Shown here: positions 35,218-48,220 of the stretch, one piece after another
Numbering within the stretch: the first letter of the stretch is position 1
How the letters are laid out: every line of letters begins with the position of its first letter
DNA from: Candidatus Aminicenantes bacterium
Lineage (GTDB): Bacteria > Acidobacteriota > Aminicenantia > Aminicenantales > JAFGBC01
Length of the DNA: 64,000 nt
Reading direction: 5' to 3'
Assembly: GCA_963702005.1 (NCBI GenBank)
Contig: OY969696.1
Span: 2,688,001 to 2,752,000, forward strand
Made by a program: the position numbers and the translations under genes
Notes under the pieces: generated by a model
Told to the model about the DNA's origin: nothing
Seen by the model: the letters and a program-made list of their open reading frames with translations, nothing else
The model's database searches: none

Positions 35218-35291
35218 GCGCCCGTAGCTCAGCTGGATAGAGCGTCTGACTACGAATCAGAAGGTCGCAAGTTCGAATCTTGCCGGGCGCG
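35218..35291 (+). tRNA. tRNA-Arg(ACG), CCA not encoded
   Basis: Acceptor GCGCCCG/CGGGCGC, D-arm GCTC..GAGC, anticodon loop CT-ACG-AA, T-loop GTTCGAATC. Confidence 0.97.
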
Positions 35292-35306
35292 TTTCTAAAT
35301 TCCCCC
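35247..35306 (+). repeat. att core copy 1 (tRNA 3' half plus 15 bp)
   Basis: TGACTACGAATCAG...GCGCGTTTCTAAATTCCCCC, identical to 48161-48220. Confidence 0.95.
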
Positions 35307-35400
35307 ATATAGAACTGATTTTCAGTTAGTTAGCCTTTCTGACCTGGGCGGCCCGGTTTAATCTGGATTAGCCTCAATTTGCCCCTATTATCCCTCTAAC

Positions 35401-35421
35401 GTGGCACAAATGTGGCACAAA
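35401..35421 (+). promoter_or_regulatory. Putative integrase arm-type sites, element 1 left end
   Basis: GTGGCACAAA twice (35401, 35412); the motif recurs at 48082 near the other end. Confidence 0.75.
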
Positions 35422-35434
35422 AATATTTAATGGA

Positions 35435-36625
35435 TTATAAAATTACGACTCGGAGCTTGCCTTCGTCCGTGACGATGAGCTTTCTAAAGCCGGCTTGATA
35501 TGGTGGACCAAGAACGAAGCTAAATCGCGCATGAAGCTTTTGGAGTTTTTGAACTTGCTCTTCAAGCATGCGTATCTGACGCGGAGTCGACTTTGGATTC
35601 TGACGACAAGTTGCCAAGGTAGCTTTAGCGGTGCCCAATTCTTTGTCCTTATACAAACATTCAAAGGGCCAGCCGTCTATCGGCCTGAAATTCTTGTATC
35701 GGCTCAAAAGGTTATTTTTCAAAGTCCGCATGGCCTTTTCCGCGGGCTGTTTCGCGTGTGTACCGATGAATTTGATGAGCTCAGGAATCCGCGTGGAATG
35801 AAAGTGAATATCTAAGAGCAGGAAAATCACGAGCGGCCAGTCCGTCTTAAGCCGATGCTGTCCATCCTTCCGAAGGACATAATTGCGCTTTCGATCAAGT
35901 TTCCAGCGCGTGGCCTTCCGAATCAGGTGATAGACAAGAACATTGTAGGGGTGCGGGTGTTTTCCGCGCTTCCCGCGGGCGAGTTTGAAATAAGGAATCA
36001 TAGATTTTTCAATCTGATTTATTATCTTCGCCAATTTAATCCGCCATACCAAAAACTGTCTAGCATTTTCTTTTAAACCCGCCAGGTTCTTCTCGCGTTG
36101 CTGTTGCCTAAAATATAGATCTTCAACATAGATATCCCACTTGACCTGATTGTCCAAGATATTATTAAATTTCTCGATCTCAGCCTCTATTTTATCGATC
36201 TTATATTGAATCATTCTCTCAGCATTGTTTTTGGGCTTCGCTAAAGCCCAGGCAAAAGGCTCGGCAGCGCCAGGCGCCAGTCTCCTCCAATCCCGATGAA
36301 AGCTTAAAATCGACCTTTCAAATTGCGATTCTTGAGCTTGGTTATCCTTCTCGATTTTGCAGAGCTCCCGAAGTAATAGCTCGAGGCGGCAATAGAGATT
36401 AGCCTTGGCATGACGGCTCGGGTTGTCTTCGTCTTGGACATCGATTCCCTTTTTCATATAGAGCGGATCAATAAGTTCCCTAATTATCTCCCTCTTTTTC
36501 TTCTTGATATCCGGCCAGGCTCTAGGATTCAAACCTAAAAACTCCTCAACCTGCGTACGGTCCCCTTTCTTCACAGCGTTGACCACGTCAATAAAAAGGG
36601 GTGAATTGCGTTCATTGAATAGCAT
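35435..36625 (-). CDS. Hypothetical basic protein, AT-rich cargo of element 1
   Basis: 396-aa ORF, visibly lower GC than the host genes; no motif recognised. Confidence 0.7.
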   Translation of the reverse strand: MLFNERNSPLFIDVVNAVKKGDRTQVEEFLGLNPRAWPDIKKKKREIIRELIDPLYMKKGIDVQDEDNPSRHAKANLYCRLELLLRELCKIEKDNQAQESQFERSILSFHRDWRRLAPGAAEPFAWALAKPKNNAERMIQYKIDKIEAEIEKFNNILDNQVKWDIYVEDLYFRQQQREKNLAGLKENARQFLVWRIKLAKIINQIEKSMIPYFKLARGKRGKHPHPYNVLVYHLIRKATRWKLDRKRNYVLRKDGQHRLKTDWPLVIFLLLDIHFHSTRIPELIKFIGTHAKQPAEKAMRTLKNNLLSRYKNFRPIDGWPFECLYKDKELGTAKATLATCRQNPKSTPRQIRMLEEQVQKLQKLHARFSFVLGPPYQAGFRKLIVTDEGKLRVVIL

Positions 36626-36687
36626 TTTCTAGTTGCCTTCGACCCTTATCCTACATCATACTTTAAGGCGTAGCAAGGAATTTCAAA

Positions 36688-36906
36688 ATGAAAAAAGAAG
36701 GCACAAAGATTCAGCCGGGACGGACGCTGAAGAGTCTCCGCGTTTTAGCGGGACTTAATCAGAAGGATCTGGGAAATCTTATCGGAATTTCTCAGCAGGA
36801 GATCTCGAAGCTGGAGCACGGCGTATTTCTTCCGGGGTCCGAACTCAGACAAAAAATCTCGGACGCGCTAGGTCAGCCGGCCTCCATTATCTATCCGGAG
36901 CTCTAA
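36688..36906 (+). CDS. XRE-family HTH regulator
   Basis: LKSLRVLAGLNQKDLGNLIGISQQEISKLEHG. Confidence 0.88.
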   Translation: MKKEGTKIQPGRTLKSLRVLAGLNQKDLGNLIGISQQEISKLEHGVFLPGSELRQKISDALGQPASIIYPEL

Positions 36907-46257: not shown

Positions 46258-46421
46258 CAACACTTCTCAATAGGAAGGATACGGCCAAGATGTTCGGCGT
46301 GACGCTGCGGACAGTAGATAACTGGTGTCGGGCGGGGCTTCTTCCGTTTATTGCACTGCCGGGCGGGAAGCGATTTGATCTTCAGGATATAGAACGCTTC
46401 ATCAACGCCAGGAGGCGATAA
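46254..46421 (+). CDS. Excisionase-type HTH_17 protein (55 aa, not in the ORF track)
   Basis: Hand translation MTTLLNRKDTAKMFGVTLRTVDNWCRAGLLPFIALPGGKRFDLQDIERFINARRR; ATGA overlap upstream, abuts the next ATG. Confidence 0.8.
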   Translation: MTTLLNRKDTAKMFGVTLRTVDNWCRAGLLPFIALPGGKRFDLQDIERFINARRR

Positions 46422-46763
46422 ATGAGCAAAAAGGTGATGAAACTCCTCGATGCCTCGACGGGACTCATGGAGTGTCGCGTCTGTGGCCGGCAGCATCACG
46501 CCTCACTCCTCGAGGGCGGGCGATATGCCCGCGGATCCTGGAAATGTTCGGACGGCTGCAAGCATTCGGATCTTCGGAAAGTCAAAGTCCGTCTGGCGGG
46601 AGGAGAACTCTCCGAATTTCGGCTCGTGGTCGGCGCGGGGATACCCGTCCTTGAGAACGCCGGCGGCCAAATCTACGGACCCGGAGACATCCGGTTCTCC
46701 GAGATCCTCTTCGTCCCGGCCTGGGCCGAGGACCTGCTCCGCTGGGCAGGATATCAATTCTGA
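46422..46763 (+). CDS. Hypothetical zinc-ribbon protein
   Basis: CRVC...CSDGC; GGAGG RBS. Confidence 0.6.
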   Translation: MSKKVMKLLDASTGLMECRVCGRQHHASLLEGGRYARGSWKCSDGCKHSDLRKVKVRLAGGELSEFRLVVGAGIPVLENAGGQIYGPGDIRFSEILFVPAWAEDLLRWAGYQF

Positions 46764-46776
46764 AAGGGAGGATATC

Positions 46777-47016
46777 ATGAAGACCGAAGTCTGCTTGATT
46801 AAGAAGTCTCAGAAGTCCGCTAAAGGGCCCGTGTCCTTACCTACGCTCATATCCCGCAAAAACGAAAAATGTTATCTCTCGGAATTGGCCAAAATAGCGG
46901 CTGCCCTGGGCGTCACGCTGAAGGATTTTTTCATCGAGAATGGCCGGATAACTTACAAGCACGTGCTGCTCATGTACAAACTTGCCGAAGAACTCAACAT
47001 GAAAACGGGAAGGTGA
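46777..47016 (+). CDS. Small hypothetical protein, degenerate HTH-like
   Basis: GGGAGG RBS; LSELAKIAAALGVTLKDFF resembles the C-terminal half of an XRE domain. Confidence 0.5.
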   Translation: MKTEVCLIKKSQKSAKGPVSLPTLISRKNEKCYLSELAKIAAALGVTLKDFFIENGRITYKHVLLMYKLAEELNMKTGR

Positions 47017-47018
47017 CC

Positions 47019-48146
47019 ATGAGCGCCTCAGCCCACGTCCGAGTTCCCGGCCTGGGCCGTATCTATCGGGTCGGCCGGATCTGGTATGTGGATTACTGGG
47101 TTGATGGCTGCCGCAAGCGCGAGCGCGCGAGCGGGGACAAGGAAATGGCCCTCAGTATCCTGGCCGCGAAACGAACGGACGTCGAACGCGGAGAGCTCGG
47201 CTTCGAGAAAAAGCAGATCCTTCACTTCGCTTCCTTCGCCGAGGAGTACAAGAAGATTAAGGCAGGTTCGAGGTCCATCTGTAGCATCCGGGGATATATC
47301 AAGCACCTTCTTCGATTCTTCGGAGATCTCCAGCTCTCGAAGATCACGCCGGAGATGATCGAGGGATATAAGCAAAAACGGCTCAAACAGAAAGTCCGCG
47401 GCCAGGACCTCAAGCGGACGATGAAGGGCTCGAGCATTAACCGGGAGCTGGCAACCCTCAAGAACATTTTCAGCGTCGCGTTGAAACAGAAGCGATATCG
47501 TGGAGATAACCCGGTCAGGCAGGTGTCCTACTTTCCCGAACAGAATCGCGATTATGTCCTCAGCAAGGAAGAGATCGGGCGCCTCCTCGAAGCAGCCGGC
47601 GGGACCCTGCGGAAGATTGTCTTGATCGCGCTGAATACAGGACTCAGGAAGGGCGAGATCCTGTCCCTGAGATGGAACCAGGTCAATTTTGAGGAAGGTA
47701 TTATCTCTTTCGCTAGAACCAAGAGTGCCAAGTATTTCCGGGTCCCCATGAATCAGGTCGTACGGGATATTCTTGCCGGGGTCGAGAAGAAAAGCGATCA
47801 TGTCTTTCCGGGTCGTGGAAGTCGGGGGTATCTCTTCGACTGTAAGAAGCAGTTCGAAGCCGCCCGGGAAAAGGCCGGCCTGCCGGAGTTGCGGTTTCAT
47901 GATCTCCGGCACTGCGCCGGCACGTACATGGCCGCGGCCGGCATCCCTTTGACCACAGTCCAGCAGATCCTCGGACATCAGGACATTCGGACGACCATTC
48001 GATATATCAACCCGAATGATGAAGGGCGTAGAAAAGCCGTCAACGCCCTGGCAGCTCTCTTCGTAGATCCCGGGCAGGGGAGTGGCACAAATATGACACA
48101 GGAAGAAATCCGGGAGCCCGCAACGATAGAGATATCAACCAATTAG
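47019..48146 (+). CDS. int: Tyrosine integrase
   Basis: N-terminal arm-binding strands (IYRVGRIWYVDY), INRELATLK, TGLRKGE (R), TKS (K), FHDLRH, LGH, TTIRY; adjacent to the att repeat. Confidence 0.95.
   Translation: MSASAHVRVPGLGRIYRVGRIWYVDYWVDGCRKRERASGDKEMALSILAAKRTDVERGELGFEKKQILHFASFAEEYKKIKAGSRSICSIRGYIKHLLRFFGDLQLSKITPEMIEGYKQKRLKQKVRGQDLKRTMKGSSINRELATLKNIFSVALKQKRYRGDNPVRQVSYFPEQNRDYVLSKEEIGRLLEAAGGTLRKIVLIALNTGLRKGEILSLRWNQVNFEEGIISFARTKSAKYFRVPMNQVVRDILAGVEKKSDHVFPGRGSRGYLFDCKKQFEAAREKAGLPELRFHDLRHCAGTYMAAAGIPLTTVQQILGHQDIRTTIRYINPNDEGRRKAVNALAALFVDPGQGSGTNMTQEEIREPATIEISTN
48082..48145 (+). promoter_or_regulatory. Arm-type sites and IHF consensus, element 1 right end
   Basis: GTGGCACAAA (48082) and ATGACACAGG (48093); TATCAA-CCAA-TTA (48133-48145) matches WATCAANNNNTTR. 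Confidence 0.72.
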
Positions 48147-48160
48147 GGCGGGGCACTCCG

Positions 48161-48220
48161 TGACTACGAATCAGAAGGTCGCAAGTTCGAATCTTGCCGG
48201 GCGCGTTTCTAAATTCCCCC
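48161..48220 (+). repeat. att core copy 2 (right end of element 1, left end of element 2)
   Basis: 60/60 identical to 35247-35306. Confidence 0.95.

Follow-up and report, generated by a model that had tools for sequence, protein, structure and literature searches.

The window analysed here, a 64-kb stretch of DNA, contains a mobile element of 12,974 bp (35247-48220) inserted at a tRNA-Arg gene. The integration target, tRNA-Arg(ACG), was found with ARAGORN at 35217..35292 (+ strand), and repeat comparison placed a 60-bp exact direct repeat over the 3' part of the tRNA (attL, 35247..35306) and an identical copy at 48161..48220 (attR). The complete 13-kb element with identical 60-bp ends given in a preliminary description was recovered as such, with the exact repeat at both positions and the left copy lying in tRNA-Arg(ACG). 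A third att copy of 48 bp is located at 50147-50194, where it bounds an extra 2-kb islet. The + strand ORFs of the element are separated by 0, 3, -1, 31, 527, 207, -4, 0, 48 and 9 bases, the 527 bases corresponding to the predicted origin and the 207 bases holding orf135, in agreement with the tight ORF coupling described earlier. Judging from the sequence, the element is intact, owing to its perfect 60-bp att repeats, the tight packing of its ORFs, the retention of invariant columns in the terminase large subunit (TerL) and a tail tape-measure protein (TMP) that aligns end to end with its phage counterparts.

The tyrosine integrase (47019..48146, +; PF00589, 1.8e-31; phrog_1, 1.3e-67) was likewise found to be intact, as proposed; its ORF opens at 46869, with homology from approximately 47019, and it shares 70-71% identity with the integrases of the relatives L084 and L137. 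Regulation appears to be provided by one XRE/Cro-type HTH gene (36688..36906, +; PF01381, 5.7e-10) and three excisionase-type HTH genes, namely an AlpA/excisionase-type HTH_17 gene at 36907..37128 (+; PF12728, 1.8e-12; TIGR01764, 2.5e-9), one at 45767..45964 (-; PF12728, 6e-12) and one at 46045..46257 (+; PF12728, 4.8e-12; TIGR01764, 4e-11). Divergent from the XRE gene lies a gene of low G+C content (44-49%) for a 396-aa protein without family match (35435..36625, -), which occupies an equivalent position in the relatives L091/L226 and L134 and for which a protein search returned seven homologs besides itself.

The replication module comprises a replicative helicase (39520..40896, +) with an AAA_25 domain (PF13481, 1.7e-25; phrog_19, 1.9e-11) and a weak DnaB N-terminal signal, followed by a predicted origin (40909..41131) with eight GGRACAGAG iterons in both orientations and an adjoining AT-rich inverted repeat (41065-41098). 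The iteron motif was matched nine times in the 64-kb window, eight of these within 40911-41126, compared to 1.36 matches expected in the whole window, and nine matches were reached in 0 of 100 shuffles. The pairing of helicase and iterons put forward previously was thereby corroborated, as was the assignment of a RusA Holliday-junction resolvase (42635..43099, +; PF05866, 6e-30; phrog_140, 1e-40). The proposed PC4 gene (42294..42638, +), a predicted ssDNA-binding protein, was upheld in part: its homologs in L137, L169 and L175 score above the PF02229 cut-off, but the window copy itself gave no Pfam match at E<=0.01.

Downstream of these genes, TerL (494 aa, 43100..44584, +; phrog_2, 1.4e-19; phrog_9, 4e-11) is more strongly conserved than any other gene of the element. 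It retains the Walker A motif CGRRSGKS (68-75), the sequence AILEE (168-172) and the nuclease Asp residues, and every invariant column of a 37-sequence alignment is present in the window copy, in agreement with the full TerL claimed earlier. Its family assignments were to terminase families only (phrog_2, phrog_9 and phrog_4914). The ORF at 41424..42086 (+) encodes a TerS-like protein (220 aa) whose C-terminal tail is disordered. Homologs were found just upstream of TerL at 66 of 131 TerL loci, and 17 of the 60 TerS-like ORFs recovered end in a stop codon that overlaps the start of TerL. Fold matches were weak, with the HK97 small terminase 8pop_A at Z 7.5, and in BFVD the top matches were named 'Terminase small subunit' with a best E of 0.025. 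The protein is best regarded as a TerS candidate, as suggested earlier, on account of its position and weak fold matches.

Several smaller genes could be described to varying degrees. Directly after TerL lies a gene for a helical protein of 184 aa (44633..45187, +), with homologs at 8 of the 131 TerL loci and synteny kept in the closest relatives (L084, L135, L137 and L169). It is followed by a 182-aa protein with an HExxH motif (45197..45745, +), a domain which in L169 follows an S78 prohead-protease domain within one fusion protein. A conserved Cys-rich small protein (41986..42393, +; phrog_2308, 1e-4), the true start of which is probably internal, had tblastn homologs at 13 of the 131 TerL loci. 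In addition, a 113-aa Cys-rich ORF (46422..46763, +) gave a weak Zn-ribbon match (E 0.004), and homolog searches returned none for an 89-aa ORF overlapping the TMP stop codon (39219..39488, +). Searches of the element ORFs against Pfam, PHROGs, NCBIfam and PADLOC yielded no family of capsids, portals, proteases, tail tubes, baseplates or lysins, and PADLOC gave no match to the element at all. The sole unassigned ORF of capsid or portal size, that of the 396-aa protein, yielded an all-helical AF2 model (pLDDT 74) without a capsid or portal fold match. The absence of recognisable head, tail-tube, baseplate and lysis genes noted beforehand was therefore confirmed at the level of families, and the search for a hidden HK97 capsid or portal returned none for this model.

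The remaining large gene (37132..39219, +) encodes the 695-aa protein initially described as tape-measure-like. It had no Pfam match, and its sole PHROG match was weak (E 0.0029) and to a family of unknown function. A profile of its relatives, however, gave as best PDB match the 'Tail tape measure' 9g8s (E 1.3e-9), and these relatives are found in canonical siphovirus tail modules (L004, L010, L011, L002, L019, L029 and L041), where tube and chaperone genes precede the TMP relative and distal-tail genes follow it. Completeness is 100% for four of these TMP-bearing phage records, which measure 40-43 kb. The window protein carries a hydrophobic segment at approximately residues 587-611 and can be aligned over its full length with the phage TMPs of L010 and L011 (623-641 aa). 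By homology and gene context, the ORF is accordingly taken to encode a true, full-length TMP homolog.

A TerL protein search gave 5,394 matches at E<=0.001 among 8,000 candidates scored, of which the best 120 share 59-100% identity with the query, the first being the window's own protein. The 131 TerL loci fetched constitute the family survey. Of 401 genomes sampled from the host's phylum, 19 contained TerL, with at most three matches per genome, and family members also occur in other phyla; only 6 of the loci stem from a 2.9-million-contig viral collection. Integrase homologs were present at 53 of the 131 loci, and exact direct repeats bracket TerL at 15 or more, many of them being the 3' ends of various tRNA genes. 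The att-bounded spans in the core family measure 8.95-15.5 kb. In contig L175 the initial 440 bases recur at the far end, a pattern consistent with a circle of 10.28 kb or with a concatemer. Among 27 well-covered core loci, in which TerL is flanked on either side by 4 kb or more, PHROG scans detected a portal in none, a TMP in five, a major capsid protein (MCP) in two and a protease in three; for most relatives these scans covered + strand ORFs of at least 200 aa near TerL, so that small or divergent structural genes could escape. In place of the TMP, other sister elements have a single gene, for a major capsid protein or a prohead protease. Together, the TerS-like/TerL elements form a large, conserved and widespread family of small att-bounded elements. 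No description of such a family was found in the literature searched, in line with the undescribed satellite family suggested at the outset, and the backbone is conserved in many relatives. Nor are the relatives in the core family full prophages, as would be expected of a deletion remnant.

The synteny anticipated across genomes held for the att-bounded backbone with TerL, but not for the TMP. The latter was found in 5 of the 27 well-covered core loci at differing positions, it is absent from a fully syntenic 10.4-kb relative (L226), and it constitutes an insertion relative to L137 and L226. In the TMP tree, satellite copies fall in at least five places among phage copies, and the AU test rejected (p-AU 4e-6) a topology in which the TMPs from the TerL subclade of the window form one clade. 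Another TMP family, unrelated to the first (phrog_8462, E as low as 8e-47), lies directly upstream of TerL in L086, L151, L153 and L193. Given its scattered occurrence, its differing positions, its placement among phage copies in the tree and its absence from L226, the TMP is an accessory cassette taken repeatedly from siphoviruses and not a core part of the family, contrary to the view that it defines these elements together with TerL.

The reading we favour, at a probability of about 60%, is that of an intact integrative element predicted to be a helper-dependent phage satellite, which would package its own DNA and likely contribute its own TMP to helper-built tails. Upon helper infection or induction, the element would excise by means of Int and the excisionase-type HTH proteins and replicate from its own origin. 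The TerS-like/TerL pair would likely recognise and cut element DNA and pump it into helper-made procapsids, and the element TMP would likely replace that of the helper, giving chimeric tails that could serve delivery of satellite DNA or escape from blocks aimed at the helper TMP. The TMP might in this manner control tail length and DNA ejection. The family as a whole could then be seen as a core for packaging to which individual morphogenesis genes are added interchangeably. In the host genome, no PF05065 capsid, PF04860 portal, second TerL or second TMP was found and no helper was identified; matches between proteins of 80 TMP-related phage loci and the host genome were confined to domains of approximately 90 aa. 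Phages with related TMPs carry a TerL of the satellite family in none of five records, hence the satellite TerL would have to dock on a foreign portal.

Satellite-encoded TMPs are already known: PMC12987554 demonstrates them in PLEs, and PMC12822802 reports them for EPIPs. PLEs, satellites of phage ICP1 in Vibrio cholerae, resemble the window element in being capsid-less and integrative and in having their own TMP, which is built into chimeric tails and needed for transduction (PMC12987554, Nature 2026; bioRxiv 10.1101/2025.01.29.635557); PMC12987554 also describes predicted tmp genes in unrelated satellites outside Vibrionaceae. By analogy, the PLE TMP offers the best mechanistic model for that of the window. 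There is no sequence relation between the two, however, and the portions of PMC12987554 at hand describe a tail-assembly chaperone and a baseplate hub in PLEs, neither of which was found beside the window TMP with Pfam or PHROGs, and name no PLE terminase, whereas the window element has TerL and a TerS-like gene. The PLE helper is a myovirus, while relatives of the window TMP lie in siphovirus-type modules, and, in contrast to PLEs, the TMP is accessory within the window element's family. EPIPs of the actinobacterium Mycolicibacterium aichiense, satellites of about 11 kb, are likewise reported to have a TMP as well as a small terminase, and their tails are said to exceed the helper's in length, but they are also reported to carry a serine integrase, a head-tail adaptor, a stopper, a scaffold and a major capsid protein, with no TerL listed (PMC12822802, preprint).

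According to PMC10085698, capsid-forming PICIs (cfPICI) resemble the window element as small integrative satellites in which int is accompanied by a regulator of AlpA type, a replication gene and TerS plus TerL, and TerL separates cfPICI from PICI in SatelliteFinder models. The same text specifies capsid, portal, protease and head-tail adaptor plus connector for cfPICI and sets a minimum of 9 among 11 core components; no cfPICI head genes were found in the window element, and its close relatives have at most one or two, never the portal. Classical PICIs/SaPIs are of comparable length (approximately 10-15 kb) and likewise have a terminal integrase, a gene divergent from an XRE regulator, a TerS-type gene and an origin of their own within a replication module; they also depend on a helper, as is inferred for the window element. 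Unlike the latter, they carry no TMP and, as stated in PMC10085698 and PMC10690885, redirect the helper TerL through their own TerS or Rpp without having a TerL.

An alternative, which we consider unlikely, is that the element is a satellite whose TMP acts as a weapon, poisoning or competing with tail assembly of infecting phages, to the benefit of the host or of the satellite itself, and is dispensable for its own particles. Interference of satellites with helper tail assembly has precedents, such as Rta of PLE11 (PMC12987554) and the Tai systems, and both the lack of a neighbouring chaperone or hub gene and the TMP-free backbone of L226 would fit. In PLEs, the only tested case (PMC12987554), the satellite TMP nevertheless enters particles and is needed for transduction. 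The captured copies are moreover full length and do not fall outside the sizes of phage TMPs (578-760 aa, against a phage TMP median of 706), as befits a working ruler, and PADLOC matched nothing in the element.

It is quite improbable that the element is instead a decayed or mosaic prophage remnant, still able to integrate and excise without travelling in particles, with TerL and TMP as leftovers. The order of TerL, 184-aa protein, protease-like protein and TMP in L135 and L169 does resemble a collapsed morphogenesis module, and distant TerL relatives (39-43% identity) adjoin portals or capsids in L123 and L130. Against this, TerL keeps all invariant residues as the best-conserved gene, the TMP is full length and the ORFs are tightly packed. 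No fewer than 15 relatives occur as compact elements with att ends, lying at different tRNA genes, and independent decay would be expected to give varied remnants, not a family in which 0 of 27 well-covered core loci has a portal. The repeated fresh capture of intact TMPs further argues for selection. Finally, an integrative replicon independent of phage particles, using a TerL-like ATPase-nuclease for replication, resolution or another DNA transaction, seems very remote: it would accommodate the full DNA-metabolism set of helicase, origin, RusA and PC4-like genes, the circle-like 10.3-kb contig L175 without integrase and the few members in the viral contig collection, but Pfam and NCBIfam revealed no gene for conjugation or partition in the window element, TerL matches terminase families alone, a TerS-like gene precedes it, often with overlapping stop and start codons, and the accessory genes that recur beside it (TMP, MCP and prohead protease) belong to virions.

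The element, both att repeats included, measures 12,974 bp and has an intact integration module, with a tyrosine integrase gene (47019-48146, plus strand; PF00589, 1.8e-31) at its right end. It sits in a tRNA-Arg(ACG) gene (window 35217-35292), the 3' part of which opens a 60-bp stretch (35247-35306) with an exact second copy at 48161-48220. Since a third att copy, of 48 bp (50147-50194), bounds a second islet of 2 kb, the att site is a tandem array. In both same-genus genomes the contig ends at the tRNA, so occupancy is not readable there. The G+C content of the element ranges from 44 to 62% in 1-kb windows compared to 60% for the genome, with the minimum over the leftmost gene. 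One public DNA run contained 7% of the element's sampled words, in identical contigs of 151-189 bases and a depth of 2-3; no att joint was found among these short, low-depth contigs placed on the element, and no RNA run with element sequence was listed.

The leftmost gene (35435-36625, minus strand) encodes a 396-aa protein without a family match and is divergent from an XRE regulator gene (36688-36906; PF01381, 5.7e-10), with which the plus-strand series begins. This continues with an AlpA/excisionase-type HTH gene (36907-37128; PF12728, 1.8e-12), the 695-aa TMP homolog (37132-39219), an 89-aa ORF that overlaps the TMP stop and for which no homolog was found (39219-39488), and an AAA_25 helicase gene (39520-40896; 1.7e-25). 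The predicted origin is an iteron region at 40909-41131, into which eight of the window's nine matches to GGRACAGAG fall (whole-window expectation 1.36; nine reached in 0 of 100 shuffles). Beyond it lie genes for a 220-aa TerS-like protein (41424-42086), a Cys-rich ORF (41986-42393), a PC4-like ORF assigned through its homologs (42294-42638), RusA (42635-43099; 6e-30), TerL (43100-44584; phrog_2, 1.4e-19, and phrog_9, 4e-11), a 184-aa helical protein conserved after TerL (44633-45187) and a 182-aa HExxH protein (45197-45745). Two excisionase-type HTH genes (45767-45964, minus strand, PF12728, 6e-12; 46045-46257, plus strand, PF12728, 4.8e-12) and a 113-aa ORF with only a weak Zn-ribbon match (46422-46763, plus strand) precede the integrase. 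Successive plus-strand genes are spaced by 0, 3, -1, 31, 527, 207, -4, 0, 48 and 9 bases, the 527-base gap being the origin region and the 207-base gap containing another conserved small ORF. Promoter and terminator scans stayed at the level of shuffled sequence (6 where shuffles gave 4.7, and 11 where they gave 14.4). NCBIfam gave no match for the TMP, TerL, the TerS-like protein or the unknown ORFs.

The preliminary description had seen no capsid- or portal-like ORF, and the family searches bear this out: no element ORF matched capsid, portal, protease, tube, baseplate, lysin or defence families in Pfam, PHROGs, NCBIfam or PADLOC (the last with 0 defence matches among 15 ORFs). The major capsid, portal, protease and head-tail adaptor or connector families that capsid-forming PICIs (cfPICIs) carry likewise had no match in any element ORF. 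The sole unassigned ORF large enough for a capsid or portal encodes the 396-aa protein; a structural check had been proposed for every element ORF. The model of this protein, built from a 10-sequence alignment, is all-helical (pLDDT 74) and matched no capsid or portal: Foldseek against the PDB was empty at E<=0.001, a wide VIA search returned generic helical matches with Z <8, and the Atlas offered unnamed clusters only, all <0.9.

Among the genes that are present, the 695-aa gene appears by homology to encode a genuine tape-measure protein, full-length and of phage origin, in line with its initial labelling as tape-measure-like. Alone, the protein had no Pfam match, no PDB sequence match and no match to a TMP-family PHROG, its sole PHROG match being weak (E 0.0029) and to a family of unknown function. 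Protein searching yielded 62 relatives, and a profile of 33 of them (A1) found 9g8s_w, 'Tail tape measure', as its top PDB match (E 1.3e-9), with generic coiled-coil proteins from E 7.5e-6. The relatives themselves match TMP PHROGs (phrog_26084, phrog_3336, phrog_24 and phrog_25337), and one homolog matches PF06791 below the cut-off. From a viral contig collection, 126 relatives were confirmed and 80 loci kept. Relatives 29-49% identical sit in siphovirus-type tail modules, in the interval from chaperone to distal-tail genes (viral loci L004, L010, L011, L002, L019, L029 and L041), usually with a phrog_8610 protein as downstream neighbour. Those of L010 (38% overall) and L011 (49% in the best segment) align over the full length, and both loci run portal, prohead protease, major capsid, adaptor, neck, a tube-sized gene, two chaperone-sized genes, TMP and distal-tail genes. 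Four of these phage records, each 40-43 kb long, have a completeness rating of 100%, and two of the four have terminal repeats. The window's TMP has a hydrophobic segment at approximately residues 587-611, followed by a G-rich motif conserved across the family. At 695 aa it is close to the phage-copy median of 706 aa (61 complete copies), and satellite TMPs of 578-760 aa stay within the phage range; length was therefore dropped as a clue to tail remodelling, the nearest phage kin moreover not needing to be the helpers. No tail-assembly chaperone or baseplate hub family was matched in the element.

The large terminase had been described as full, and its motifs argue that it is intact: Walker A CGRRSGKS, AILEE, and the nuclease residues D307 and D441-D442 are all kept and are invariant in a 37-sequence alignment, in addition to the two PHROG matches. 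Against Pfam PF03354 it reached only E 0.009, below the cut-off, its profile found nothing among PDB sequences at E<=0.01, and PF27249 is listed for some relatives. The TerS-like gene lies immediately upstream of TerL among the relatives, its stop overlapping the TerL start in 17 of 60 recovered ORFs. The protein had no Pfam, PHROG or PDB sequence-profile match and an empty Foldseek PDB result at E<=0.001. Its AF2 model (39 sequences, pLDDT 74) superposed on the HK97 small terminase 8pop_A (Z 7.5, rmsd 3.3 over 93 residues) at rank 3 among tied helical matches, and the top BFVD matches were named small terminase, with a best E of 0.025. We call the protein TerS-like rather than TerS. As for the HExxH protein, it matches the C-terminal half of a 369-aa protein in a TerL-family locus (L169:7620-8729), the N-terminal half of which is an S78 prohead protease. 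On account of this fusion the HExxH domain may act in head assembly, which we take as a lead only. It also matches a 336-aa protein of another TerL-family locus (L135, 6782-7792), with a weaker protease-like PHROG signal.

TerL identifies a conserved family of elements. Among 8,000 candidates scored, 5,394 relatives were found at E<=0.001; the 120 best listed share 59-100% identity with the query, and the first of these rows is the window protein itself. TerL was matched (E<=1e-30) in 19 of 401 genomes evenly sampled from the window's phylum, with at most three matches per genome. Of the 131 TerL loci fetched, genomes supplied 45, metagenomes 80 and viral contigs 6; their record titles name Aminicenantes/Aminicenantales, Acidobacteriota, 'uncultured Eubacteriales', Nitrospira, Nitrospinota, Deltaproteobacteria, Verrucomicrobiota, Chitinophagales and Alphaproteobacteria (Bradyrhizobium, Afipia and Methylobacterium). 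By tblastn, homologs of the other element proteins were found most often for the TerS-like protein (66 of 131 loci) and the integrase (53), followed by the HTH protein of 45767-45964 (19), the PC4-like ORF (18), the helicase (13), the Cys-rich ORF (13), the 184-aa protein (8), the TMP (7), the 182-aa protein (6), the 396-aa protein (2) and RusA (1); all these are lower bounds, since many loci are short contigs.

A search for small att-bounded elements with a shared gene set, suggested at the outset, recovered the TerL backbone in units of 8.95-15.5 kb, measured as the span between exact direct repeats bracketing TerL, with tRNA genes called separately. The smallest is L097 (8.95 kb, tRNA-Leu), followed by L158 (9.5 kb), L141 (9.6 kb), L143 (9.7 kb), L162 (10.5 kb), L163 (10.8 kb), L177 (10.9 kb), L086 (11.5 kb, tRNA-Thr, with two more att copies behind), L121 from Afipia (11.5 kb), L099 (12.4 kb, tRNA-Met), L088 (13.1 kb), L137/L138 (14.4 kb, with a tRNA-Arg-type core as in the window), L182 (15.2 kb) and L155 (15.5 kb). 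The window's element combines the family TerL behind a TerS-like gene with a tyrosine integrase, a size in the 9-15.5-kb range, tRNA att repeats and no portal. No terminal repeats of up to 200 bases were found among the TerL loci. Outside the range of that test, the first 440 bases of L175 (a metagenome contig of 10,720 bp with 42% G+C) recur at 10278-10717, three bases before the contig end. This locus carries DUF5131, XRE, PC4, TerS-like and TerL genes and no integrase, and it fits a 10.28-kb circle or concatemer that may be episomal.

For structural genes, PHROG scans covered all ORFs of 11 loci and, elsewhere, plus-strand ORFs of at least 200 aa near TerL. Within that scope, no portal was found in the 27 well-covered core loci, i.e. 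those among 93 loci with a TerL at least 55% identical in which 4 kb or more of sequence flanks TerL on either side. Five of the 27 carry a TMP (L084, L086, L137, its near-copy L138, and L169), two a major capsid (L143 and L183) and three a prohead protease (L088, L155 and L169), and nine have at least one of portal, TMP, capsid and protease. Over all 93 core loci, TMPs were found in 11, of two kinds. The window type occurs in L084, L135, L137/L138, L169 and L185/L189, while a second, unrelated family (phrog_8462, E 1e-23 to 8e-47) occurs in L086, L151, L153 and L193, in each case immediately ahead of TerL. Capsid genes (phrog_10) are found in L092, L129, L143, L164, L174 and L183, and the satellite protease (phrog_80) and capsid families are those of the TMP-donor phages L010, L011 and L019. 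In most of the 38 distant loci (TerL <55% identical), TerL is once more accompanied by an integrase and by a primase or polymerase. Four of them have a portal (L123, L130, L132 and L133) and L131 is an 84-kb phage contig, which places the roots of the TerL lineage among real phages.

What this window adds is a demonstration, drawn from gene order and phylogeny, of the TMP as an accessory gene captured repeatedly from phages. A FastTree phylogeny of TerL (119 rows) groups the window in a starred nine-row clade with L084, L134/L135, L136/L085, L144 and L137/L138, all members of which carry a window-type TMP where enough context is available. The position of the gene differs among them: in the window it lies in the interval from the HTH gene to the helicase, in L084 and L137 it immediately precedes TerL, and in L135 it follows the protease-like gene. 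In a second tree, built on 88 rows of the TMP N-terminal domain, satellite copies occupy at least five places among phage copies, that of L137 being sister to phage L063 (support 100) and that of L169 grouping with phages L029 and L047 (support 96). Forcing the TMPs of the window's TerL subclade into one clade, a group chosen from the TerL tree when the TMP tree had already been seen, cost 177.9 log-likelihood units (p-AU 4e-6).

The insertion itself can be delimited from a genome in which two TerL elements, 10.3 kb apart, lie back to back around one tRNA-Arg (the L091 genome; G408:C1, approximately 1,087,000-1,103,100). The upstream element ends with an integrase directly before the tRNA-Arg. 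The downstream one (L226, read on the reverse strand), of approximately 10.4 kb and without a TMP, runs from the tRNA-Arg through an opposite-strand gene of the 396-aa type, XRE, helicase (42%), TerS-like, PC4-like and TerL (61%) genes to a 199-aa ORF, the HExxH protein, RusA (47%), two HTH genes, the integrase and an att repeat, and is thus the window backbone minus the TMP and the 89-aa ORF. As L226 lacks both genes and L137 runs XRE, HTH, helicase, the insertion in the window is exactly the TMP plus the 89-aa ORF. Of the gene set put forward in the preliminary description (integrase, helicase, TMP and TerL), the backbone is conserved, while the TMP, present in five of 27 loci and in differing positions, is not a fixed part. 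The exchange of TMP cassettes among sister elements would suit a role in an arms race or in host tracking.

Among known satellites, the element is most like the Vibrio PLEs for its TMP and the cfPICIs for its packaging genes, but by definition it is neither. For PLEs it is reported that the particles contain the satellite's TMP and exclude that of the helper, with tails shortened as the TMP length predicts, and TMP deletion cuts transduction by 96-99.9% (10.1101/2025.01.29.635557; PMC12987554). The discussion of that work also mentions unrelated satellites with predicted tmp genes (PMC12987554). As far as that text describes PLEs, the likeness lies in the TMP, whereas the element is without the PLE chaperone and hub, and its host is not Vibrio, in which PLEs parasitise ICP1. 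With cfPICIs, as outlined in the source text available, it shares packaging genes but not the whole head module (PMC10085698), and with PICIs an integrase, an HTH_17/AlpA protein and a helicase, though its intact TerL excludes a classical PICI on the descriptions at hand (PMC10085698, PMC10690885). EPIPs resemble it in having a TMP and a TerS (in the element, a TerS-like protein), but they also have head genes and a serine integrase (PMC12822802). Among the satellite families compared, and within what these texts cover, an own TerL accompanies a full head module (cfPICI), PICIs are without TerL, and no terminase is named for PLE. Full-text literature searches found no account of a family of capsid-less satellites with a TerL, and none of the present family in Aminicenantes; the supplements and extended-data figures of the PLE paper may list other TMP-bearing satellites. 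Our verdict is that the element represents a new family of predicted satellites.

From this gene content we infer a life cycle in which the element would excise and replicate from its iteron origin, after which the TerS-like/TerL pair would recognise and cut the element's own DNA. This DNA would be translocated into helper-made procapsids, and helper tails would be used with the satellite TMP in place of the helper's, a last step for which the PLEs offer a tested precedent. The benefit of an own TMP may be a fit to the tail of a particular helper, evasion of blocks directed at the helper TMP, or interference with the helper. No resident helper was found: the element's own genome has no PF05065 or PF04860 match, its sole TerL and TMP are those of the element, and tblastn of all ORFs of the 80 TMP-related viral loci gave elsewhere only domain matches of approximately 90 aa. 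An origin of the satellite TerL in the TMP-donor phages was rejected, as its profile matched none of five phage records; the satellite motor would for the same reason need a foreign portal. Nor did the element's TerL, helicase or RusA have a homolog within 10 kb in any of the 80 viral loci.

A tentative reading, to which we give a probability of roughly one in three, is that of a satellite family spread across several phyla and built on a private TerS/TerL motor, which repeatedly captures single siphovirus morphogenesis genes (at least six captures of TMPs, which belong to two unrelated families, while other members took up a lone capsid or prohead-protease gene). In this way every lineage would rewire exactly one step of helper assembly, with TMP cassettes swapped even between sisters to track helpers or to evade blocks on DNA injection. 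If true, a large and conserved family retaining just the packaging motor, with one swappable virion gene added (TMP, capsid or protease), would constitute a new strategy of molecular piracy and would extend the chimeric-tail finding in Vibrio PLEs to uncultivated sediment bacteria. The independent TMP captures would form a natural series for asking what a satellite gains from owning its tail ruler. The family also draws attention to elements of approximately 10 kb that virus-detection pipelines mostly miss: the viral contig collection supplied only six of the 131 loci.

To the right of the element, the islet between attR and the third att copy (48221-50194) contains two tandem minus-strand genes (48384-49013 and 49233-49862). 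Both encode 209-aa proteins in which an N-terminus resembling a signal peptide accompanies a tail-collar domain of phage type (PF07484; 4e-19 and 5.5e-18). The copies are 80-86% identical in DNA and spaced by 849 bp. As it has no integrase, the islet may be what remains of a larger element, or the neighbour's integrase may mobilise it in trans. The tRNA-Thr site of L086 (14942-20800) is a tandem islet array as in the window, its att core recurring at approximately 18514 and 20758 behind the 11.5-kb element with TerL and TMP. Immediately right of the third att copy in the window, a dispersed repeat of approximately 100 bp (50568-50667) has 116 blastn matches in its own genome and more than 40 in a same-genus genome, and looks like a REP- or MITE-type sequence. 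In one TerL-family locus, finally, the gene for a 690-aa reverse transcriptase (L103:7251-9323; phrog_1423, 1.7e-26) lies upstream of that for the TerS-like protein, and a primase-helicase follows TerL.
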